A stretch of DNA of 64,000 nucleotides from an uncultured Gammaproteobacteria bacterium (GCA_964344415.1 CAYFMS010000002.1:192593-256592), one strand, 5' to 3'; counted from the stretch's first letter, positions 47,331-57,195 are shown. Made by a program: numbers and translations. Notes: a model not told the origin generated them from the letters alone.

Positions 47331-50321
47331 TTAAGCATCAACATCGAGCTCTAGGCCCGCGCTCGTCATTTTAAAACCTTTAATATTAACCTCTCCGGCA
47401 TGTACTTTTTTATGGCAAGCCTTGCATAAAGGTACAAGATTGTATTTATGATCCTTGTGAAAATGCTTAATATGACCATGCTCATTGGCATTTTTTTGGG
47501 GGGCAATATGATGGATATCCGATATTATTCCACTACAAAGGGTACAACTTGTGGCATACAAATCGCTATTATAGGTATTAATCTGCTTGTTCGTTAACAA
47601 TGTTAAATCATCTTCTTCTTGAGCAATTTGCTGACGGATTTTGGCAGCTAAAGCGAGGAATTTCTTGTCCATATGCAAAGATTCCGCAAACTCCAAACCA
47701 TAGACACTGCTACCACTCCCGGCTTGTAATGTACGATCAAAAATCAATTTATCCGCTTGTTCATCGTAATGCACATGTAAATGCACACTCACCACTTGAG
47801 GTAGAGATTTCAACAGATCAATGTTATGCAGTTGATGTAGATGGGTGGTAAACATGAACAAAGATCCGATTTCCGAAAGACGCTGTATTGTCGCGGTTAC
47901 AATAGCTAGAGCGGATAGTGTTTCTGTACCTCGACTGATTTCATCACCTAATATGAGACTTTGAGCCGTTGATCGATTAAAAATATTCTTCATTTCCATC
48001 ATTTCCACCGCAAAAGAAGATAGTCCTTTTTCAAAGTTATCCCTTGCAATAATGCGAGTGAAGATTTCGTGGAAAAGAGTGAATCTCATTTGTTTGGCTG
48101 GAACATAAAAACCGCTCTGAGCCAAAATGACACAAATACCCAAGCTTTTCATGAGCGAAGACTTACCGCTCGAGTTAATTCCATATAATAAAACTCCACG
48201 CGTATCTTCATCCGTCATCTGCGCCATGGTGCAAGAAGCAATTGACGCTTCCTGCAATGACTTGTCGCCCATCACTACGTCATTTGGAACATAAATCCCA
48301 TTTTCTTCACGAGCTTCCACCAGTGGATGTCTAACCTCTAATAATTCTAAATACGACGTTTGCTCATGGCTCGTAATTATTTGCGGGCGAACTAAATTAT
48401 GCAGCAAAGAAGATTTGATATTCGAAAGGGCTACATCAATCTTTCCAATCGTCGTGATGAGCGTATTCATCAACTCAGAATATTGTGTATCGAGTCGCTC
48501 TAATTCAGTATGGAAAAAATTACGGACTAATGCAGAGATCTTTTTATTCAAGAGCGTAATTTGTTCAGAAATATCACCAATAATTTTTGCTGTGATTTTA
48601 ACATTGCCCGTTTGAATCTTTACCGTGAAATCGTTCAGTGCATACACCGTGCCATCAATCGAAACAAAGCTATCAGATAACATTTGTTCAATTAAAAAGT
48701 ACCTGCTTTTTGTGATTGAAATATGATGTCCTTCCTTTTCAAGATGCTTAATCACGACATAATCTCGTTCAGGTTTGCCGGTTTGTTGTTCAATCAAGTG
48801 GACAAATTCAGTCCTAATTGTTTCCAATTTCTCCTGAAGTTCATTCTTTTGCTTGATAAGACTATCGATCTCAGCATTAAATCCAGCTTGAAAAAAACTT
48901 TGACTAATTTCACCTTGTGAGTACTTGCTGGTTTCATCCAAATTGAAAATTGCTTCCAAATCAAGAATAGCTTTTTCGAGTAGTGGCTGCTGCTCGACAA
49001 GTTCCGGTAGAATCGACGAACCGTCAATACTGGCCAAATGCATTAAGATGCTTTTACTCGCAATCAAAGAATCATAGAGAAAATTGATTTCAAAAGGATG
49101 CAGGCGACCAAGCTGAATACGACGTTTTAAGCGATCAATATCATAAATATGTTTCAGTTCCGCATCGATTTCTGCATAGATAAAAATTAGCGCATCGGAA
49201 AGATCATAACGAGCTTCAAGCTCCGTTTGGTCAATGATTGGATTCATGAGCCGTTCCCTGAATAGGCGGCGACCAAGGCTGGTACGAGTATTATCGAAAA
49301 AACTTAATACGGTCTGTTCATTTGGGTTAGATGAAATAATATTGAGTTGCTCGAGTGGATTATTGCCCAAATATAGGAAGTTTTTGTCATTAATATGCTG
49401 TGGTTCGATAATATTTTTTACCACTTCCCTGTCATGCTCAATAATAAATTCAAGCAAAATTGCCAAAGCTTCCGCTGCCAAAGGTTTTTTCTCTAGGTTT
49501 AAATACTCAATCGACGACAAAAACGATTTAATTTCATAGCAATGTTTAAATAATTCATTCTGATAGCTAATAGATAAACGTTTATTGTCAGTATGAACAT
49601 TCAGACTCTCCGATAGCTCCAGATATTGCTGAACAGTTTCTGGAACAAGATCCTTACCTCCACATGTTAGGAGAACTTCATTTGGTTCATGTGATTTAAG
49701 TAAAGAAAAAAGCTGGTCTAATGCATACGTGGAGTCCTCCTGAGTGCTGTGGATTTCAAAAACTGAAGTTCTACCAGTGGTAACGTCAATTGCTGCATAG
49801 CCAACCGAGTAATTGTCCTTATGCTTCTCAACAATTAAAGAAGTGGTGAAATTGTCATCATTATTGAGAGTATATTCAAAGTTAACACCGGGAGATAAAA
49901 TATTGTCCAAGTAACGTGTTACATTTGGTGGTGCGCCTTTTTGCTTGATAATGACAATCGTGTATTTATTTTCGCGAATCAGTTTTTGAACATAGCGATC
50001 GAATGTGGCCGTAGGAAAACCAGCCATAAGTGGATTTTTGACATTGTTTTCCTGAATGTTTTTATTCTTTCGCGTTAATTGAATATTCAAAATTTCAGCA
50101 ATTTCTTTTGGTTTACCAATTTGCTTCGTCGCATTATCAACTCCGTAAATTTCAAAAAATGACCCGATTTCCATCAGCACAACTGTGTCAGTTCCATACT
50201 TTGCTTCGAACAGCTCTTGTAGCTGTAAATAGATGGCAATCAACGATTGATTCGTGTCATCGAGTAACTCCTGAACACGTGCTTGCATACCCATAATGCT
50301 CTGCATTTTATCAGCTCTCAC
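47331..50321 (-). CDS. MutS-family protein with C-terminal HNH endonuclease domain (MutS7-like architecture)
   Basis: N-terminal mismatch-binding-like domain I (VVLMEIGSFFEIYGVDNA). MutS ATPase domain V (LLYGINSSGKSSLMKSLG...ILGDEISRGTETLSALAI...FTTHLHQL). C-terminal HNH with CTLCSG...HHIAP...HG...N...LCKACHKKVH. 996 aa. Confidence 0.8.
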   Translation of the reverse strand: MRADKMQSIMGMQARVQELLDDTNQSLIAIYLQLQELFEAKYGTDTVVLMEIGSFFEIYGVDNATKQIGKPKEIAEILNIQLTRKNKNIQENNVKNPLMAGFPTATFDRYVQKLIRENKYTIVIIKQKGAPPNVTRYLDNILSPGVNFEYTLNNDDNFTTSLIVEKHKDNYSVGYAAIDVTTGRTSVFEIHSTQEDSTYALDQLFSLLKSHEPNEVLLTCGGKDLVPETVQQYLELSESLNVHTDNKRLSISYQNELFKHCYEIKSFLSSIEYLNLEKKPLAAEALAILLEFIIEHDREVVKNIIEPQHINDKNFLYLGNNPLEQLNIISSNPNEQTVLSFFDNTRTSLGRRLFRERLMNPIIDQTELEARYDLSDALIFIYAEIDAELKHIYDIDRLKRRIQLGRLHPFEINFLYDSLIASKSILMHLASIDGSSILPELVEQQPLLEKAILDLEAIFNLDETSKYSQGEISQSFFQAGFNAEIDSLIKQKNELQEKLETIRTEFVHLIEQQTGKPERDYVVIKHLEKEGHHISITKSRYFLIEQMLSDSFVSIDGTVYALNDFTVKIQTGNVKITAKIIGDISEQITLLNKKISALVRNFFHTELERLDTQYSELMNTLITTIGKIDVALSNIKSSLLHNLVRPQIITSHEQTSYLELLEVRHPLVEAREENGIYVPNDVVMGDKSLQEASIASCTMAQMTDEDTRGVLLYGINSSGKSSLMKSLGICVILAQSGFYVPAKQMRFTLFHEIFTRIIARDNFEKGLSSFAVEMMEMKNIFNRSTAQSLILGDEISRGTETLSALAIVTATIQRLSEIGSLFMFTTHLHQLHNIDLLKSLPQVVSVHLHVHYDEQADKLIFDRTLQAGSGSSVYGLEFAESLHMDKKFLALAAKIRQQIAQEEDDLTLLTNKQINTYNSDLYATSCTLCSGIISDIHHIAPQKNANEHGHIKHFHKDHKYNLVPLCKACHKKVHAGEVNIKGFKMTSAGLELDVDA

Positions 50322-50376
50322 AATAAAATCTAGTAAATAGTAAACATAAAAACCAACCTTACGGTTGATTCTTTGC

Positions 50377-50542
50377 TGGCTCTGGGGGTGATATATAGCC
50401 TCGCTCTATACAAACCTTCGGTTTGACCGCTCGGCAGGATCCCACCCCAGCATCTGTTCCATGAATACCTAGAACATCTGCACAGCCTGACGGCTGTTAA
50501 GCCAAAAGAAAACAACCCTGACGGGTTGCATTCTTTTGGCTC
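50377..50542. repeat. 166-bp direct repeat DR1; begins with a 14-nt copy (tggctctgggggtg) of the tRNA-Asn 3' terminus
   Basis: 3 mismatches in 166 bp versus 56100-56265. Internally it holds a nested hairpin gccaaaagaa...(aaccc tgac gggtt)...ttcttttggc. Confidence 0.85.
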
Positions 50543-50590
50543 CCCGTGTTACATGATTACCGAACTGGTGGATGTGTATCAGATGGTGCA
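50522..50590. repeat. Degenerate tRNA-3'-half-like remnant R1 (ttggctccc...gattaccgaactggtgg)
   Basis: About 70% similar to 52212-52280. It resembles the tRNA-Asn acceptor/T-loop segment (tggctc...ggattcgaaccc) on the same strand. Confidence 0.4.
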
Positions 50591-50880
50591 AAAAAGTATG
50601 AACCGGATTAATGGTTGATCTTTTGTGTCGAATGTAAGCGTGTAAATGATGTCAGAACATTTAAGAACTATAGGGGGTGACCCCCATCCCATGGCCTGGA
50701 TATAACTTATTGTTACGCTCACCGGTTAAAATACAACAATCAACAACCTGAACCCGCTGTTATTTGCGATAGGTCAGGCAAATTATAGTGATCCTTTTTA
50801 TTCTGTATATATTAAAAACCTCCGTAGCTCAGTTGGAGCAATGGAGGTTACGACCCTGTCGTCGGCAGGATCAGATGAGT

Positions 50881-52071
50881 TTACGCAGATTTGCGCCTAC
50901 GGGCATCGAAAATGGCGTCGATCACCGCATCTGTCTTTGGACGGCGGTGTGAGTAAATCTCGTCAGCCATCTCTGGGACCTTGTTTGCTAGGCGCTGAAG
51001 ATCGTCTTCTTTCAAAGTGAAACGTTCGATCAGGCACCGAACAGCTTCTTCCATTCGGACCTGTGTGCGTATGCATAGCCACAGGGCGCGTTCGCTTGCG
51101 ATGTTCAGATCTATGAGACTTGCTGCTTGTTTACGGTATTCAAGACTGCGTCCAAAGTCGAGAATTTCAGCAAGACAATCCGGATCCGTGCAGTTACGCC
51201 GAAGCAACTCTTCGCTAGCAATGTCGCTAAATCCGCTTAACACGGTAGTAGACAAGACCACGTCACTTGGATCAAGAGAGAGAAAGGTCTGCCACAGCAT
51301 TTCATCGAGCTCTCGTACTTTACGAAACCACTTTGCAAAAACGACAGGGTCATCGCAACCGTTGAAGAGCTTCTGTTTGGCGTCTTCACGGAGCTCTTCG
51401 CTCATATTACCGATCCAAAGAAGTTGATCTTCGCTGAAGTTGTGGTCACGCAGAAACCGACGCGCTCGATCCAGTAGCTCCGGAACCCTTGCGATATCCT
51501 TTAGCTCGTACATCCCGATCCCCCTGACTTCTAGTATCTGCCAGGCCTGTTCCCTGAATTCTGGACAGTGTATCGCCACACGAGTCAGGTGCGTGAGGTC
51601 TACTACATCAAGCTTGAGCTGTTTCCATGCACGTCCACGCAGGTCTGTAAAATGTCTCATGATCTGCGTGACTGCCCAGTTACAGCGAAGTCGACGCGGA
51701 TCGGCCCTGCCGAGCAACCAATTCGTGAAACGTTCCCACAACGTAAGCTCGAGATCCTCGAGGTAGTCGAGAACCGCTTCGGCAATGGATCGCGTGCTCG
51801 GCAGATCGTTGTCAATGGAAATCGCTAGATCGGTGCCGTTCATATCCGCCGCCATCAGTTGCGCCGCGTGTTGACGGAACAGCGAGCATCCTCGCACCAC
51901 ATCTCTCAGCGTATGACAGTTGATACCTTGAATCAAGGTTAATCGCCAGGCTTCCCGACAAATGTGTTCAGGAACATCGTCCCGAACGAAGTAGCTGTAG
52001 TGCCAGTTCTTGGCTCCAGGTTCGCTGTTGAGTAGCGCAGTCCAGAGTTCCTCTGCTGTTTGTTCGTCCAT
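50881..52071 (-). CDS. Hypothetical protein (396 aa), all-alpha, Trp/Leu/Arg-rich; compositionally foreign (GC-rich) gene
   Basis: The ORF is visibly much GC-richer than its flanks (which resemble the rest of the window), and several spurious antisense ORFs co-occur in it. No recognisable catalytic motifs. Confidence 0.5.
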   Translation of the reverse strand: MDEQTAEELWTALLNSEPGAKNWHYSYFVRDDVPEHICREAWRLTLIQGINCHTLRDVVRGCSLFRQHAAQLMAADMNGTDLAISIDNDLPSTRSIAEAVLDYLEDLELTLWERFTNWLLGRADPRRLRCNWAVTQIMRHFTDLRGRAWKQLKLDVVDLTHLTRVAIHCPEFREQAWQILEVRGIGMYELKDIARVPELLDRARRFLRDHNFSEDQLLWIGNMSEELREDAKQKLFNGCDDPVVFAKWFRKVRELDEMLWQTFLSLDPSDVVLSTTVLSGFSDIASEELLRRNCTDPDCLAEILDFGRSLEYRKQAASLIDLNIASERALWLCIRTQVRMEEAVRCLIERFTLKEDDLQRLANKVPEMADEIYSHRRPKTDAVIDAIFDARRRKSA

Positions 52072-52211
52072 TCGGCCTCCAAAAGAGCATTGTAAAATTT
52101 TTAATTCGTGTGAGTATTTTGAACGCTCAACGAATAAATTATAGCAAGAATATACTTATGTCAATAAAAGGTCAGGCTTAGCACAGCCAAATAAAAATCC
52201 TCCGCACAAGA

Positions 52212-52280
52212 CGGTGAATTTTTATTGGCTCCCAACATTACGTGTTTACCGAACTGGTGAGTATCTACCAAGCGGTGAAG
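52212..52280. repeat. Degenerate tRNA-3'-half-like remnant R2
   Basis: ttggctcccaacattacgtgtttaccgaactggtgagtat, similar to R1; same orientation. Confidence 0.4.
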
Positions 52281-52314
52281 TTGAGCATGCCACGCATTCA
52301 AAGCTGTATGTTCG

Positions 52315-52965
52315 CTATTTCGCAATAAGATGTTTATCAAACCCTTGATCAACAAGATGCTGGTAGGCCTCTAATACGTTGTCTGGTATTTCTTGCGAGA
52401 TCTGGAACCCCTTATCAGGGTATTCGATGATTCTTTGAAGATCGCCAACCATAATGTTTACAAAAGCATCTGTATCAATCGATCCATCATCATAGTCTTC
52501 AAAGTTCAGCTCTGGAGATGCAAGAATCAATTCTTTCTCAGGCCAATGCACTTTTCCAGTTGCATACGCACGGCGCTCCATATACGGCTTCGTGACAATA
52601 ATCGCACTTGAAAATTCGATGCCTTTTTCTGTGAGCAGCTCACCACTCAGTTTGAAGTTGTCGCCAGTATTTCGCGCTTCTTTCTCAAGAATGATGCTGT
52701 CATCCGGAACTCCCGCCTTTATCATCACATCAGCAAACTCTTCCGCCTCAGTTCGTTTCCATCCAGTATCAAGTAGGTCGCCAATGTGAGCCATGCCACC
52801 AGAAACGACTACTATGGGTGCTAAACCTTTTTTGAACAAATCAGCAGCATACTCTGCTACACGGATATCGTGACTACCTAAAACAAGGATAATGTCAGCC
52901 TTCTCAAGCAACTGATTGAGTTGATGATATTTGTAGAGCAATTTCGCGCTTTCCGCTATATCCAT
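52315..52965 (-). CDS. DUF218/YdcF-family protein
   Basis: ADIILVLGSHDIRVAEYAADLFKKGLAPIVVVSGG is the canonical DUF218 core. 216 aa; last gene of a 5-gene minus-strand operon. Confidence 0.65.
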   Translation of the reverse strand: MDIAESAKLLYKYHQLNQLLEKADIILVLGSHDIRVAEYAADLFKKGLAPIVVVSGGMAHIGDLLDTGWKRTEAEEFADVMIKAGVPDDSIILEKEARNTGDNFKLSGELLTEKGIEFSSAIIVTKPYMERRAYATGKVHWPEKELILASPELNFEDYDDGSIDTDAFVNIMVGDLQRIIEYPDKGFQISQEIPDNVLEAYQHLVDQGFDKHLIAK

Positions 52966-52966
52966 A

Positions 52967-53320
52967 CTAGAAATCTTCTTTGAAGTCTGCTTGAATCGAG
53001 AGTTCCTCTCCCTTTTTTATATCTCTCAAAGCAACATCAGCATCTAGCTCGTAGTCCACGTATACATTCGGGTCTTCGTATCGATTTACGTGTCGTTCTG
53101 GGTCTGGGTAGTAATAAATGATTCCATATCTTTTGTGTGTAAAGTGTTTCTCAGACGCAGGAAGATTCTTGAACTCTTCTTCCGTGAGAGTCTTCAAATT
53201 GTACTGAATCACCACTTCACCCTTCTTGAAATCTCGAAACGCAAATACACCAAGCCCATCATTGAATTGACCAATGCCAGACTCCCTAATTTCAACATCT
53301 CCGAAAATTTGTTTATTCAT
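52967..53320 (-). CDS. SET-domain protein (small bacterial SET, putative lysine methyltransferase)
   Basis: GLGVFAFRDFKKGEVV (SET-N), HVNRYEDPNV (NHSCxPN-like) and EELSIQADFKE (post-SET-like ELTFDY). The start is set at internal MNKQIFGD, which avoids overlap with the upstream gene. Confidence 0.55.
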   Translation of the reverse strand: MNKQIFGDVEIRESGIGQFNDGLGVFAFRDFKKGEVVIQYNLKTLTEEEFKNLPASEKHFTHKRYGIIYYYPDPERHVNRYEDPNVYVDYELDADVALRDIKKGEELSIQADFKEDF

Positions 53321-53336
53321 AGTACTGGTTAGTATA

Positions 53337-54287
53337 TCAACTACTTGAGAGAGAAAAATCCTTGTACATAAGGTCACATAAACAATCATGAAGCCTATTC
53401 ATATTCTCAACATCCTCTCTGGTGAATGTATGGTTAGGAGAAAGTGATGCACCGTGAACAAGGCCCTTGTTATTTCTTAGATGATTCCATGCATGTACAT
53501 GGCTTAAATAATATCCAAATCCTTTTCCAAGACTCTTTAAAAACTCCTGCACCCTATCCTTTGTTACACCTTTGTTATTTATATTTCCGGGCGTCAACTT
53601 TCTTTTTAAAGCTTTTTTCTGTGAGTCAGACAAACCCAACTCCTCAATCTGTAAGACCGTATTTTCTATAATGCTATTCAACTTACTCCAATTAGCACTT
53701 TCTTTTCTTTTATCGACAATGGAGGTTTTTACACTTTCTGTTTTAGATAAATGCTCTATTAGAGCATACTCACTCATAAATCTAACATCAGCAATTGCAA
53801 GGGTATTGATTTGAAGCATTGGGAGTAGCATTTTTCTAAAAAAATGACTCTCTTTTAGTCGGGCTAGTCCGTGCTCAATGGTCGCTACAGGATGAGCGAA
53901 TAGATGTTTTCTATTTCTATTGATTTGACAACCTCCTCCTAGGTTGAAATTTTTTGGAATAGCAGAGAATGGAAAATCATTGTTATGAAATAAAATGGTC
54001 ACATTATCAGCCAGTAAATATGATAGTACGAGTGAGATTCTCCATAGTAAATCCTTATCTTCATCCTCTAATGTTACAGTCAGAACTAATGTGTTGTACC
54101 GAACAAGCTGCAGCTCAAGCTCTCCCTTAAAGATATTAAAGGTGAACTGCGTTCCGGTGTTAAGCACTTCTTTCTGCTTGCTTGGAATACTACCTAACTC
54201 ATATTTCATTTTCAGCAACTTACCAGTCTCCTCAAGATAAATCTGTCGCTCTCTGTGTAGATTGAACAAGTTGCGCACCTCGGGCAT
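53337..54287 (-). CDS. Hypothetical protein (316 aa) with C-terminal Rx6H (HEPN-like) motif; candidate Abi/HEPN-type protein
   Basis: C-terminal SHVHAWNHLRNNKGLVHGASL contains R-x6-H, as in HEPN nuclease motifs. No other family recognised. Third gene of the operon. Confidence 0.35.
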   Translation of the reverse strand: MPEVRNLFNLHRERQIYLEETGKLLKMKYELGSIPSKQKEVLNTGTQFTFNIFKGELELQLVRYNTLVLTVTLEDEDKDLLWRISLVLSYLLADNVTILFHNNDFPFSAIPKNFNLGGGCQINRNRKHLFAHPVATIEHGLARLKESHFFRKMLLPMLQINTLAIADVRFMSEYALIEHLSKTESVKTSIVDKRKESANWSKLNSIIENTVLQIEELGLSDSQKKALKRKLTPGNINNKGVTKDRVQEFLKSLGKGFGYYLSHVHAWNHLRNNKGLVHGASLSPNHTFTREDVENMNRLHDCLCDLMYKDFSLSSS

Positions 54288-54302
54288 ACAAGTTTACAAG
54301 CA

Positions 54303-55196
54303 CTATACTGCTTGATGGTTTGATGAATACTTATCTGTCAGCAAAGTAACAGCACCTTCATTGAAGAAGAAATACAAGTTTCCGTTTGAACGTGTAGAGA
54401 ATACCTTTCCGAGGTACTCCTGTTTATTATCAATCGTGTTGTAGCGTAAACCTCCGGCGTATGAAGAATATTGAGAAGCAATATCCGTACCCTGTTTCTC
54501 TGATTCTGATGCTTTTGACAGCACAATAGCACCAACCTCTCCCGTTAAATCAAAAAGAGATTTAGGAAATCCAGATTTATGGCCGTGATGAGGTGCCACC
54601 AGAATGTCTAAGCCATTTTTCATTGTTCTAATAAAATCCTTGTCATTGGCTGCAAGCCAGTCCCATCCAGCCTGCTCAAGGTCACCACCAAATAGAATAC
54701 GAACGTTTCCATACCTCACGTACCTCAAGATGCTAGAGTTATTTTTCTGTTTATCATTGAGCTCCGAATTGCTCTTAACCTGATGCATTGGGATGAGGAA
54801 GACTCTGTTTTCGTGAAATCCCCAGCCGTCGAACTTAATTGAGGCACCTCGATATCGTAAATCGATATGGTTTTTATATTCGTCATGAATATTTTCACCA
54901 ACATCAAATGATTCATGTCGTCTACGGTGAACGAGGTAAGGCGACAATTTTTCAGAAACCTTTTTCGCATTCTTTACATGGTCATCATCTGGATGGGTAA
55001 CGTGCAGTAGCGTTAGGTCGTACCCATTATAACTTTTCATTTTCAAAAAACTGTCCTTCAAGTGAAGCACTCGGTCTACGGGGCAATCCTTTTCCGCGTT
55101 ACTTCCACAATCAATCATCATGCTATATCCGTTTGGACAAACACATAGATTGCATGCAGCGTTATTTACATCAAAGACAACTAATTTTGCACTCAT
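54303..55196 (-). CDS. Standalone ComEC/Rec2-type metallo-beta-lactamase-fold nuclease domain protein
   Basis: Matches the ComEC C-terminal domain pattern: VFDVNNAACNLCV...MMIDCGS, LLHVTHPDDDHV (HxDxDH), ILFGGDLE and ILVAPHHGHKSG (PHHGS motif). The start is set at internal MSAKL, which gives an ATGA overlap with the upstream membrane-protein gene. Confidence 0.7.
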   Translation of the reverse strand: MSAKLVVFDVNNAACNLCVCPNGYSMMIDCGSNAEKDCPVDRVLHLKDSFLKMKSYNGYDLTLLHVTHPDDDHVKNAKKVSEKLSPYLVHRRRHESFDVGENIHDEYKNHIDLRYRGASIKFDGWGFHENRVFLIPMHQVKSNSELNDKQKNNSSILRYVRYGNVRILFGGDLEQAGWDWLAANDKDFIRTMKNGLDILVAPHHGHKSGFPKSLFDLTGEVGAIVLSKASESEKQGTDIASQYSSYAGGLRYNTIDNKQEYLGKVFSTRSNGNLYFFFNEGAVTLLTDKYSSNHQAV

Positions 55197-55858
55197 ATCT
55201 TTCTCTTTAAATTCAACTGAATAATTTTGTGTACCAATCCTCTTGCAACTCCACGGGCTCTCCAGAGAAAAATTAGTGCTATAGCGAAAGCAATGACGCT
55301 TAGTTCTCGATAATCCTGAGTAAATAAAAGCAAGCCAACAAGCAAGAAGACGAGGAAGATTACGCGACAAAAAAGATACGAAGCGTTCGACTGAACTATT
55401 TCTGAAGTGCTGGAAACCTTGCTATATAGCCTCCAAAATATGCTCTGTGACAAATCGTCAGCCTGCTTTGTATCATCGCCCTTAAAGATGAGAGGAATAT
55501 CTGAATACTCTCGGTCAATCAAAGCTCTTTCGTTTGTATTAAGGTCAAGCAACTTCAACAACTCTTCACGTTTGTAATCACTCTTGAGTACAGGGTTCTG
55601 CTTATATAAAAAGACCTTGGAAGGCCTTCTCATGCGAAAGAAAATATCAACAAAAAATTCAAGGGAGTGGGCAAGTGTTTGTAAAACTTCGCCGGCAATA
55701 AAAGCGGCACAAAAGAATAGGAAAGTATAAAGAAAGTCTAAGTCCTGATTAAAGTACACGGAAAACGTTTCGCTATATAGTGCCAGTGCCACTCCTAGCA
55801 GGAGACCGCCCGGCATAACTCTAATCATTAAGTCTTCAAAACTGAATTTGTCCAACAT
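55193..55858 (-). CDS. Hypothetical membrane protein (221 aa, 2+2 TM), first gene of the island operon
   Basis: Hydrophobic helices at both ends with a charged central region; its stop overlaps the MBL-gene start (ATGA). Confidence 0.4.
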   Translation of the reverse strand: MLDKFSFEDLMIRVMPGGLLLGVALALYSETFSVYFNQDLDFLYTFLFFCAAFIAGEVLQTLAHSLEFFVDIFFRMRRPSKVFLYKQNPVLKSDYKREELLKLLDLNTNERALIDREYSDIPLIFKGDDTKQADDLSQSIFWRLYSKVSSTSEIVQSNASYLFCRVIFLVFLLVGLLLFTQDYRELSVIAFAIALIFLWRARGVARGLVHKIIQLNLKRKI

Positions 55859-55924
55859 ATTTAATCTAATTTTGGTAATACTGCTTGTACGACTCCTTGA
55901 ATGCTATTAAAGGGGTCAGGTCTC

Positions 55925-55950
55925 ACGTCGTTCGTGAACGACGTGAGGTC
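55925..55950. other. Perfect 12-bp-stem hairpin (ctcacgtcgttc gtga acgacgtgag) upstream of the island operon
   Basis: Inverted repeat seen directly in sequence. It sits in the operon's 5' flank, so it is more likely an operator or structured leader than a terminator. Confidence 0.4.
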
Positions 55951-56099
55951 GTTTATTGTCGCTTTTTTTGTAAAATAAAGTCATGGCACGACCTCCTAGA
56001 ATAGAATATAACGGAGCTCTCTATCATGCAATGTCGCGTGGACTGTCCTACCTCCTTCAAAGTAAAATAAAAACAATCCCTGATGGGATTATTTTTATT

Positions 56100-56265
56100 T
56101 GGCTCTGGGGGTGATATATAGCCTCGCTCTATACAAACCTTTGGTTTGACCGCTCGGCAGGATCCCACCCCAGCATCTGTTCCATAAATACCCAGAACAT
56201 CTGCACAGCCTGACGGCTGTTAAGCCAAAAGAAAACAACCCTGACGGGTTGCATTCTTTTGGCTC
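56100..56265. repeat. 166-bp direct repeat DR2, immediately abutting (6-nt overlap) the tRNA-Asn 3' end
   Basis: Near-identical to DR1. The layout is ...tggctctgggggtg-DR body-ttttggctc | tgggggtgggattcgaaccc (tRNA). Confidence 0.85.
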
Positions 56266-56616
56266 TGGGGGTGGGATTCGAACCCACGACCAATTGGTTA
56301 CACGTAATCCTATAGTTTCCTATAAGCATGGACTATATCATCATCCTTCTCAATGAGTGAGGATGCGAGGCGCTTCGAGTCTTGCGACCCTACTCCATAA
56401 AGGATAGTCTCTGAACCGGCCTTCGCCAAGGCTTCGTCCGACAGGTCTTCCTGCTCGGTCCTTGATGAAGGATTGGCTGCTGATTGCCATATTCTTTCGA
56501 ATGAAGGTTTCCAGCAATTCACCTCGTTTTCATTCCACTGTTTCCAGTGGAAGCTGCGTTAGGCGCTCGATTGAGCTGTGCCACAGCCAACTGCTCTGCC
56601 ACTGAGCTACCCCAGA
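56260..56616 (-). tRNA. tRNA-Asn(GUU) interrupted by a group I intron in the anticodon loop (exons 56584-56616 and 56260-56300)
   Basis: 5' exon TCTGGGGTAGCTCAGTGGCAGAGCAGTTGGCTGT. 3' exon TAACCAATTGGTCGTGGGTTCGAATCCCACCCCCAGAGCCA. The spliced product has a canonical cloverleaf with anticodon loop CUGUUAA and a T-arm GTGGG-TTCGAAT-CCCAC, with CCA encoded. It is close to bacterial tRNA-Asn sequences. Confidence 0.8.
56301..56582 (-). ncRNA. Group I self-splicing intron (282 nt) inserted between anticodon positions 35 and 36 of tRNA-Asn
   Basis: Conserved group I core elements are present. P-like GAAUUGCUGGAAA, Q-like AAUCAGCAGCC, R GUUCAGAGACUA, S AUAUAGUCC. A P2 hairpin has a GAAA tetraloop (CCACUG-GAAA-CAGUGG). 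A P9 hairpin has a GAAA tetraloop (CUUAUAG-GAAA-CUAUAGG). The intron ends in a G (omegaG). The 5' exon ends in U with a candidate IGS GCAGCU. Confidence 0.75.
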
Positions 56617-56858
56617 TTATTATCTCGTATTCGTTTTAGAAACTCTTTTCCGTAGCCCGATTTTAGGTATCTTTCCCTTGCTCGCGCCGAGGGTCTATCA
56701 GTTACCTGTTCGGTGTACAGCAGAGTCCATGGTCGGTAGGCTTTCGTAGAAGAAACCCTACCAGCGTTGTGCTCCGATATTCTACGTTCGATATTTCCTG
56801 AAAAGCCCACATAAATTCTACCATCATGTTGACTTGCAATTGCGTAAACGTGATACAT
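56607..56858 (-). CDS. GIY-YIG nuclease-domain protein (UPF0213/YhbQ-like, 83 aa)
   Basis: YHVYAIASQHDGRIYVGFSGNIERRISEHNAG...KAYRPWTLLYTEQ...ARARERYLKS matches the GIY-YIG (GIY...YVG...R...H...E) YhbQ-type pattern. Its last 10 nt overlap the 5' end of tRNA-Asn. Confidence 0.7.
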   Translation of the reverse strand: MYHVYAIASQHDGRIYVGFSGNIERRISEHNAGRVSSTKAYRPWTLLYTEQVTDRPSARARERYLKSGYGKEFLKRIRDNNLG

Positions 56859-56873
56859 ATTTTGTTAACTGCT

Positions 56874-56894
56874 CCCTGCCTGCCGGCAGGCAGG
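56874..56894. repeat. Perfect GC-rich palindrome ccctgcctgccggcaggcagg(g), copy 1
   Basis: Inverted repeat seen directly in sequence. A second, complete copy lies at 60183-60204. Confidence 0.7.
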
Positions 56895-56914
56895 TGCCAC
56901 TGAGCTACCCCAGA
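56895..56914 (-). repeat. Duplicated 20-nt fragment of the tRNA-Asn 5' end (tgccactgagctaccccaga)
   Basis: Identical to 56597-56616 (tRNA positions 1-20). It lies 280 bp upstream of the real tRNA start, on the far side of the GIY-YIG ORF. Confidence 0.7.
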
Positions 56915-56994
56915 ATTTCAAATTGTGAACATTTTTCAAAAGAACGGTGACGAAATGGTATCATGCATTTTAGTAATCGTCAATAATTTATTCT

Positions 56995-57195
56995 ATGAAA
57001 AAGAAAAAAGCTTTTCTTCAATTGGCGGGTTCCATATTCGCCACTGTTGCCCTGCTCCATGCACTCCGCGTAGGCATGGAATGGGACGTTATTCTTGATT
57101 CTTATGAATTGCCTCCCGCGCTGAGTTTGTTAACAGCAGGTGTGGCAGGGACACTTGCTTATGCATTGTTTTACTATTCAAATCATAAAAAATAA
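56995..57195 (+). CDS. Small membrane protein (66 aa)
   Basis: Two hydrophobic helices; first gene of a plus-strand cluster. Confidence 0.3.
   Translation: MKKKKAFLQLAGSIFATVALLHALRVGMEWDVILDSYELPPALSLLTAGVAGTLAYALFYYSNHKK

Follow-up and report, generated by a model that had tools for sequence, protein, structure and literature searches.

A candidate membrane-protein and metallo-hydrolase defence pair among probably independent genes of a tRNA-adjacent islet

Five minus-strand genes are tightly packed at positions 52315-55858 of a 64,000-nucleotide stretch of DNA from an uncultured Gammaproteobacteria bacterium (GCA_964344415.1 CAYFMS010000002.1:192593-256592), the whole of which is called the window here. 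They lie in a small islet beside a tRNA gene, together with a sixth, orphan open reading frame (ORF). An original prediction made from the sequence had proposed that the five genes form an accessory module, possibly with a function in defence or DNA processing. On balance, we favour reading this 3.5-kb stretch as islet cargo of independent genes rather than as one five-component system. It would comprise a candidate defence pair, made of a transmembrane (TM) protein and a stand-alone metallo-β-lactamase (MBL) fold protein, a single-gene HEPN protein, and unrelated cargo, and could be described as a small mosaic defence island. The association between the TM and MBL genes is the sole conserved linkage in the cluster. 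The prediction thus holds in that these are accessory genes on a tRNA-adjacent islet, with a defence role plausible for part of the cluster. It does not hold for a conserved five-gene module, because three of the genes do not co-occur with the others in the loci sampled. The five genes are as follows.

55193..55858, minus strand: four-TM protein of 221 amino acids (TM221), recognized from the ORF and hydropathy; Csx27-like, conserved partner of the MBL protein
54303..55196, minus strand: stand-alone ComEC-type MBL-fold metallo-hydrolase of 297 amino acids, recognized from Pfam Lactamase_B, PADLOC PDC-M48B, motifs and AlphaFold2 (AF2)/Foldseek
53337..54287, minus strand: 316-amino-acid protein, N-terminal β-rich and C-terminal HEPN/Abi_C-like, with the motif R271-x6-H278; independent, probably a single-gene module
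52967..53320, minus strand: small SET-domain protein of 117 amino acids, recognized from Pfam SET; apparently unlinked cargo
52315..52965, minus strand: YdcF/DUF218 family protein of 216 amino acids, recognized from Pfam DUF218; apparently unlinked cargo from a very large family

The tight packing that had been predicted is confirmed by the coordinates of the ORFs, by direct reading of the junctions, and by an independent gene call that yields the same genes on the source contig, a 768-kb contig from an ENA metagenome assembly (ERZ930061). The TM221 and MBL genes overlap by 4 nucleotides (nt) in the sequence ATGA and are translationally coupled through this overlap. A gap of 15 nt separates the MBL gene from the 316-amino-acid gene, and the SET and DUF218 genes are 1 nt apart. 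The remaining junction depends on where the SET gene begins. With the ATG at 53320, which yields the 117-amino-acid protein, there is a 16-nt gap. With the start of the longest ORF at 53389, which yields 140 amino acids, there is a 53-nt overlap. The start at 53320 is favoured because alignments with 80 homologous metagenome loci begin at residue 4-8 of the shorter version. No internal terminators are predicted between the five genes, and they are probably co-transcribed head to tail. About 60 nt upstream of the TM221 gene start, a hairpin with a perfect 14-bp stem (GGTCTCACGTCGTT...AACGACGTGAGGTC, 55919-55950) is a possible operator, terminator or recombination site.

The profile searches that had been suggested as a check on the cluster return above-threshold Pfam families for the Lactamase_B, SET and DUF218 proteins and none for TM221 or the 316-amino-acid protein. 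PADLOC models add a PDC-M48B match for the MBL protein and a Csx27 match for TM221. The latter spans the full length of the protein (E = 7.6e-6, 24.5 bits), and PADLOC gives no curated threshold for this model. Hydropathy places the TM helices of TM221 in two pairs (residues 9-27 and 40-58, then 154-172 and 186-204), which are separated by a soluble loop of about 80 amino acids. The C-terminus is basic and carries the sequence LWRARGxARGLV.

The genomic surroundings of MBL relatives were sampled in 31 genome loci and five further contexts, and every ORF was searched with the six islet proteins. Among 33 MBL loci, 13 distinct loci other than the window carry a TM221 homologue directly upstream of the MBL gene (E = 1e-38 to 1e-74), with a gap or overlap of no more than about 4 nt. 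These loci span at least seven phylum-level lineages, with representatives in Paceibacterota, Moraniibacteriota, Prolixibacteraceae, Hyphomicrobiales, Lentisphaeria, Elusimicrobia, Melioribacter and others. Relatives of the 316-amino-acid, SET, DUF218 and 396-amino-acid (orphan) proteins occur in none of the 33 loci. There is also no recurrent third gene downstream of the pair in these contexts, where integrase, hsdS, MBOAT, helicase and methyltransferase genes are found variably. Scattered occurrence of the individual genes is therefore what is seen for the SET, DUF218 and 316-amino-acid genes, whereas TM221 and MBL genes co-occur.

In MBL loci that lack TM221, the MBL gene abuts a gene for another small multi-TM protein or for a patatin phospholipase. 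Two loci (L004 and L033) pair the MBL protein with PDC-M48A (E = 1e-48 and 5e-43, respectively). Other partners belong to a Csx27-like family of about 198 amino acids, to a 258-amino-acid four-TM family that is followed by a second MBL paralogue, or to the patatins, and two further partner families match the Csx27 model weakly. A distant relationship between TM221 and the 198-amino-acid group is detected by hhalign (E = 5e-5), which finds none between TM221 and the 258-amino-acid family. TM221 does not match the PDC-M48A models even at E ≤ 1, and hhalign gives a probability of 3.4% against the M48A-like partners. The partner of a plasmid-borne MBL relative with 24% identity also has two plus two TM helices. 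The MBL partner has thus been exchanged among at least four unrelated families of small multi-TM proteins and patatin phospholipases. Together with the recurrent TM221 pairing, these alternative partners indicate that the evolutionary unit is an MBL protein plus a membrane- or lipid-acting partner.

Some loci hold more than one such combination. Either two MBL paralogues flank a four-TM gene, or a patatin-MBL pair is joined to a TM-MBL pair (L022 3390-5939, L027 3261-7073 and L006 3835-6912). These arrangements suggest tandem or composite versions of the module.

The MBL protein has an intact metal-binding site, as had been predicted. The motifs H-P-D-D-D-H (H68 to H73) and APHHGH (H203-H206) show no variation across 20 family members, and the full set of invariant residues comprises D29, H68, D70, D72, H73, D172, H203 and H204. 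The metal motif has the H-x-D-x-D-H form of ComEC, and a PHHG(S/H) motif is shared as well. The proposed ComEC type also finds support in both sequence and structure. When the family profile is compared with the PDB, ComEC MBL domains are the sole sequence matches. The AF2 model (predicted local distance difference test score, pLDDT, 89) has as its top Foldseek match the β-lactamase-like domain of ComEC (9ic4, E = 1.7e-11, TM-scores 0.64/0.70). The accompanying statement that this domain is normally found only fused to ComEC was too strong, as the stand-alone form of about 300 amino acids accounts for at least 209 clusters at 90% identity. Its members are 47-60% identical and come from candidate phyla radiation (CPR) bacteria, Bacteroidota and others. 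The MBL protein is a probable nuclease or phosphodiesterase, judging from these motifs and matches.

No MBL relative was found in phage databases. Plasmid databases hold relatives with 22-26% identity over most of the length, and one further match spans 42% of the query at 33% identity. One of the plasmid relatives (22% identity) is encoded on Sphingobium baderi plasmid NZ_CP128179.1 (locus L128, 1-4915), downstream of genes for a metallohydrolase, a Mov34/MPN/PAD-1 (JAB) protein and a hypothetical protein. It adjoins a type I restriction-modification (R-M) system, and the arrangement resembles the ubiquitin-related architecture of 6A-MBL, a system considered below.

Among known and predicted systems, PDC-M48 is one of the closest to the pair. 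The MBL protein aligns with the PDC-M48B model (PDLC04675) over almost its whole length (residues 3-274 to profile positions 5-272 of 291, E = 3.9e-22). It shares its family of proteins of about 300 amino acids with the L004 and L033 proteins that are paired with bona fide PDC-M48A, and a small multi-TM gene abuts its own gene. However, the A component of PDC-M48 is a four-TM protein of about 164 amino acids. Here it is replaced by a 221-amino-acid protein with two plus two TM helices and a central soluble loop, for which Csx27 is the only model match. The pair therefore appears, from these comparisons, to be a partner-swapped variant of a predicted candidate defence pair. The claim that the cluster matches no described system was half right, since the MBL protein corresponds to the B component of predicted PDC-M48 but has a different membrane partner.

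Likeness to ComEC/Rec2 is confined to the C-terminal β-lactamase-like nuclease domain, whose structures (PDB 9ic4, 9vcb and 9vcf) are the closest solved sequences and structures to the MBL protein. In contrast to ComEC, the MBL protein is soluble and stands alone, without the Competence channel domain or the OB/DUF4131 domain, and its partner has four TM helices rather than a ComEC-like polytopic channel. A split ComEC, which would have argued against the original prediction, is ruled out, because the gene calls for 10 kb to each side include no channel gene with a Competence domain.

TM221 recalls Csx27, the membrane accessory of type VI-B CRISPR-Cas13b systems, in its model match and in being a small multi-TM protein encoded beside a nuclease. 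However, the score is low, and the partner nuclease here is an MBL protein and not a HEPN RNase. Neither cas13b nor a CRISPR array accompanies TM221. Its gene is flanked by the MBL and tRNA genes, there is no ORF of about 1100 codons nearby, and positions 50200-57000 contain no repeat array.

The 6A-MBL anti-phage system of Pseudomonas aeruginosa is reported to incorporate ubiquitin-related elements (PMC13276650). Its MBL component (NF058524) shares the N-terminal metal-binding region with our MBL protein (E = 1e-12, residues 8-80). This similarity covers only the N-terminal quarter (73 residues), and the islet lacks ubiquitin-like, E1/E2 and JAB genes. The NCBIfam scores are all below threshold, both for 6A-MBL (47.8 bits against a cut-off of 220) and for ComEC (TIGR00361, 23 bits against 190). 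Weaker PADLOC matches are to the MBL components of Lamassu (LmuA), DRT (RTasMBL) and Avs1 (Avs1a). Membership of 6A-MBL, Avs1a, LmuA and DRT-MBL is ruled out, as only sub-threshold N-terminal similarity is present.

The neighbourhoods of TM-MBL pairs are rich in R-M and mobile-element genes. For example, one context contains HinfI and ICEA R-M enzymes with methyltransferases, another is a relaxase and type IV secretion region of an integrative and conjugative element with a NACHT gene, and a third carries PglZ and AAA_21 genes. Recombinases near the pairs are of the serine or tyrosine type, and LexA-like S24 peptidases and Dam methylase are also among the neighbours. In a metagenome-assembled genome from Paceibacterota (L037, 3381-12091), TM221 and MBL genes reside inside a type I R-M operon with the order hsdM-hsdM-[TM-MBL]-hsdS-hsdR, in which the genes share a strand and are separated by small gaps. 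Across 78 neighbours, the PADLOC models matched most often are those of R-M methyltransferases. As far as gene context can indicate function, these surroundings favour a defence role for the pair without proving it.

The 316-amino-acid protein belongs to a rare family. A search with the protein by word index returns itself alone. An exhaustive HMMER search of 1.84 billion representatives finds 24 relatives, all of about 316 amino acids. The HEPN-like Rx6H motif that had been noticed in this protein is well supported by the alignment of these 24 sequences, in which E173, R271 and H278 are invariant and the spacing is R-x4-6-H. There is no conserved stretch of 7-10 residues. Abi_C, which is of the HEPN type, is the sole recurrent weak match. 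It is found in 5 of the 24 relatives over the motif region (best E = 0.0013). For the islet protein itself the Abi_C match (E = 0.012, 16.1 bits) is below the cut-off of 24, and no curated Pfam family of the HEPN type exceeds its threshold. The structure prediction that had been recommended yields an AF2 model (pLDDT 87.6) with an N-terminal β-rich domain (residues 1 to about 115) and a helical C-terminal domain. Searching this model against the PDB with Foldseek gives no significant match, only weak GHKL-like ones. We consider the HEPN assignment likely.

The contexts of this family were examined in five loci. Neighbours of the relatives include the Septu genes PtuA (E = 1e-161) and PtuB (E = 2e-57), DNA methyltransferases, an HNH gene and a PDC-S54-like gene. 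The gene of the closest relative (38% identity; L009, 1694-6957) follows those of a 759-amino-acid HEAT-repeat protein and a 65-amino-acid ORF, immediately downstream of PtuA/PtuB. No MBL gene is present in these five loci. A conserved pairing of the MBL and HEPN-like genes is therefore contradicted from both sides, since 316-amino-acid relatives are likewise missing from the MBL loci. In the window, as in the loci of the five relatives, the 316-amino-acid gene has no MNT-type antitoxin gene next to it, which distinguishes it from HEPN-MNT toxin pairs (HEPN toxins 5yep and 7ae2). It differs from AbiA (C-terminal domain 8oz7) in lacking a reverse transcriptase or polymerase domain, and from Abi_C (PF14355)/HEPN proteins in its N-terminal β-rich domain, which has no significant structural match. 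Its conserved residues and gene contexts suggest a HEPN protein for abortive infection or toxicity that stands on its own, probably as a single-gene unit.

The SET domain that had been recognized in the cluster scores above the Pfam threshold (PF00856, E = 7.5e-9, 36.4 bits against a cut-off of 22.4). Canonical SET domains carry the motifs NHSCxPN and EELxFDY, the latter with the catalytic tyrosine. The corresponding sequences here are HVNRYEDPN and GEELSIQADF, in which the histidine and the canonical tyrosine are off their expected places. With NRY in place of NHS and no ELxFDY tyrosine, methyltransferase activity is not assured. The SET family, like that of YdcF/DUF218, is widespread. The 80 homologous SET loci contain no homologue of the DUF218, MBL, 316-amino-acid or TM proteins, and have no conserved neighbour.

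The DUF218 protein exceeds the Pfam cut-off of 27.6 bits with a score of 68.1 (PF02698, E = 9.5e-19) and is a typical YdcF family member. It has 6374 homologues, many of them named YdcF, the best of which is 72% identical and occurs in CPR bacteria, and it matches E. coli YdcF in the PDB (3ca8, E = 9e-4). A link between the SET and DUF218 proteins through S-adenosylmethionine (SAM) had been suggested. It receives no comparative support, and the SET motifs are divergent. A SET-DUF218 pair is rejected, as none of the 80 SET loci has DUF218 and the loci of the two closest DUF218 homologues have no SET neighbour.

The orphan ORF begins the list of islet features below. It lies 243 nt from the DUF218 gene and has a G+C content of about 47%, compared to about 39% in its neighbours. 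It matches no family in four libraries and has no homologue in any fetched locus. The SET, YdcF/DUF218 and 396-amino-acid genes appear, from these surveys, to be unrelated cargo without a demonstrable functional tie to the TM221-MBL pair or to the 316-amino-acid module.

50881..52071, minus strand: orphan ORF of 396 amino acids, the sixth islet gene, recognized from the ORF call and composition
56086..56265: left 180-nt direct repeat, found by repeat search and alignment, 95% identity
50363..50542: right 180-nt direct repeat, found by repeat search and alignment, 95% identity, directly before a MutS-like gene
56260..56616, minus strand: tRNA, probably Thr(UGU), with a group I intron, recognized from Rfam RF00028, reading of the exons and in-silico splicing

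The two direct repeats have a start-to-start spacing of 5723 nt and enclose an islet of about 5.5 kb, whose gene content is the five genes of the cluster and the orphan. Read on the minus strand, the left repeat opens with GAGCCA, the last 6 nt of the tRNA, and takes in the tRNA terminator hairpin. Identical terminator-like hairpins are found at 56252-56235 and 50529-50512. Direct repeats with one copy overlapping the 3' end of a tRNA are characteristic of tRNA-targeted integrative islands, and the tRNA linkage that had been proposed can thus be stated more sharply than before. The islet is a degenerate, tRNA-adjacent one.

Several observations weigh against our division of the cluster into independent genes with one candidate defence pair. 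The context samples are small for the 316-amino-acid family (five loci) and the DUF218 family (two loci). Tight spacing and the lack of predicted internal terminators are compatible with co-transcription, so that, on sequence alone, it is conceivable that all five genes are functionally coupled in this lineage. PDC-M48 is a candidate predicted by PADLOC for which we know of no experimental validation, and it is not mentioned in the literature searched. An integrase or recombinase domain is absent from all six islet genes and from genes up to 10 kb on either side. In addition, the MBL model matches the pneumococcal phosphorylcholine esterase Pce/CbpE at Foldseek ranks 2-4 (E = 2e-9), and with this enzyme as the second-best structural match the MBL substrate need not be DNA.

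If all five genes constituted one integrated system, it would combine a membrane sensor, a nuclease, a HEPN RNase, a SET methyltransferase and a SAM-binding DUF218 protein. The genes do share one strand and one repeat-bounded islet, with gaps or overlaps of at most 16 nt (or one 53-nt overlap) and no strong internal terminator. Nevertheless, such a system is very improbable, because the 316-amino-acid, SET and DUF218 genes do not co-occur with MBL genes or with each other (33 MBL, 5 316-amino-acid, 80 SET and 2 DUF218 loci) and because the genes downstream of TM221-MBL pairs elsewhere are unrelated. Moreover, defence islands normally contain unrelated defence genes in close packing. The pair might instead belong to mobile accessory physiology rather than to defence, as a membrane-associated phosphodiesterase that acts on envelope components, stripping them of phosphocholine or other head groups as Pce does, or on DNA in uptake or turnover. 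The Pce/CbpE matches, the identity of the partners as membrane proteins or lipases, and the envelope-enzyme neighbours in one locus (L020, with MBOAT and a family 9 glycosyltransferase) are consistent with this explanation. We find it unlikely, since ComEC nuclease domains are the best matches in both sequence and structure, and the MBL protein has no signal peptide by inspection. Furthermore, R-M and mobile-element genes dominate the contexts, with one pair inside the type I R-M operon, and the related PADLOC and NCBIfam MBL models (LmuA, DRT RTasMBL, Avs1a and 6A-MBL) all describe nucleases of defence systems.

Another explanation takes the pair, and separately the HEPN protein, as addiction or toxin modules that stabilize a mobile element and give the host no protection from phage. 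Little weight can be given to it, because the 316-amino-acid gene has no MNT-type antitoxin beside it in any of the loci inspected, and the islet retains no mobility genes to be stabilized. Toxin-antitoxin and abortive-infection roles can also coexist. Finally, the islet junctions could be an assembly artefact, in which a small circular element that shares about 180 nt with the region downstream of the tRNA has been threaded into the chromosome. The repeats are just 5723 nt apart and there is no integrase, and a Logan assembly made independently from the same run contains a separate 5617-bp contig that corresponds by coordinate arithmetic to window positions 50513-56129 and ends inside both repeats. 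However, with differences at about 5% of positions the two copies are distinct sequences rather than one collapsed repeat, the 768-kb ENA contig spans both, and contig breaks at repeats of this kind are in any case to be expected from De Bruijn assemblers. An artefact is highly unlikely for these reasons, and the conclusions on gene content and linkage are independent of the junction question.

If the TM221-MBL pair is a defence pair, the MBL protein might act as a metal-dependent DNase, like the ComEC domain, and work with or under the control of its membrane-acting partner. Invading DNA could then be destroyed at or near the membrane, or membrane damage could be triggered in an abortive-infection response. 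The 316-amino-acid protein may combine a putative N-terminal β-rich sensor with a HEPN domain, and could serve as an RNase toxin that is activated by stress or phage. A broader proposal is that stand-alone ComEC-type MBL proteins and their interchangeable membrane partners represent a widespread class of defence by membrane-coupled nucleases, a 'decapitated ComEC'. The nuclease would be held at or activated from the membrane to destroy DNA that enters by phage injection, conjugation or transformation, and the TM or patatin partner would be an anchor, a sensor or a second effector. We regard this generalization as doubtful. If it is true, the window holds an unlisted partner variant next to a new abortive-infection family with a β-domain and a HEPN domain.

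The novelty of the cluster is modest. It lies in a partner variant that is new for a predicted, unvalidated system and in the rarity of the HEPN family. A working defence function for the pair would connect immunity with the nuclease chemistry of ComEC, a machine for DNA uptake, and would define a compact two-gene system of broad phylogenetic distribution (CPR bacteria, Bacteroidota, Proteobacteria, Lentisphaerota and Elusimicrobiota) with unusually free swapping of membrane and lipase partners, which would be useful for separating sensor and effector roles. The 316-amino-acid family would add a rare sensor-HEPN architecture. There is also a lesson for annotation. Operon-like packing in an island is no evidence of a multi-gene system, and here only two of the five genes are evolutionarily linked.

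The tRNA beside the islet has its anticodon loop split by a group I intron of about 282 nt, at about 56303-56584 (Rfam RF00028, 83.9 bits). ARAGORN does not detect this intron-bearing tRNA in its unspliced form. In-silico splicing after a U at the 5' junction and after a G at the 3' junction yields a 75-nt tRNA-Thr(UGU) in ARAGORN, and the exact splice junction is inferred from this U...G rule. There are three copies of the 14-mer CACCCCCAGAGCCA, which forms the tRNA 3' end: one in each repeat (50377-50390 and 56100-56113) and one in the tRNA (56260-56273). The approximately 75 nt that precede CACCCCCAGAGCCA in each repeat show a vaguely tRNA-like acceptor pairing. A tRNA-like piece in the repeats was rejected as a candidate, as its folding is not significant (z = -1.6) and neither ARAGORN nor Rfam calls it.

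Upstream of the tRNA is an 83-amino-acid GIY-YIG ORF (56607-56858, minus strand) whose stop codon lies within the tRNA 5' end. It is preceded by a partial duplicate of the tRNA 5' end (56914-56895 and 56874-56867) that is split by a perfect 20-nt palindrome, CCTGCCTGCCGGCAGGCAGG (56894-56875). This region looks like a free-standing insertion of the homing-endonuclease type beside the intron-bearing tRNA. On the other side of the islet, directly outside the right repeat, a 996-amino-acid MutS homologue with domains I, II, III and V is encoded at 47331-50321 on the minus strand. It carries an extra Cys/His-rich C-terminal tail that receives no Pfam call and is HNH-like by eye (CxxC...HH...CxxCH).

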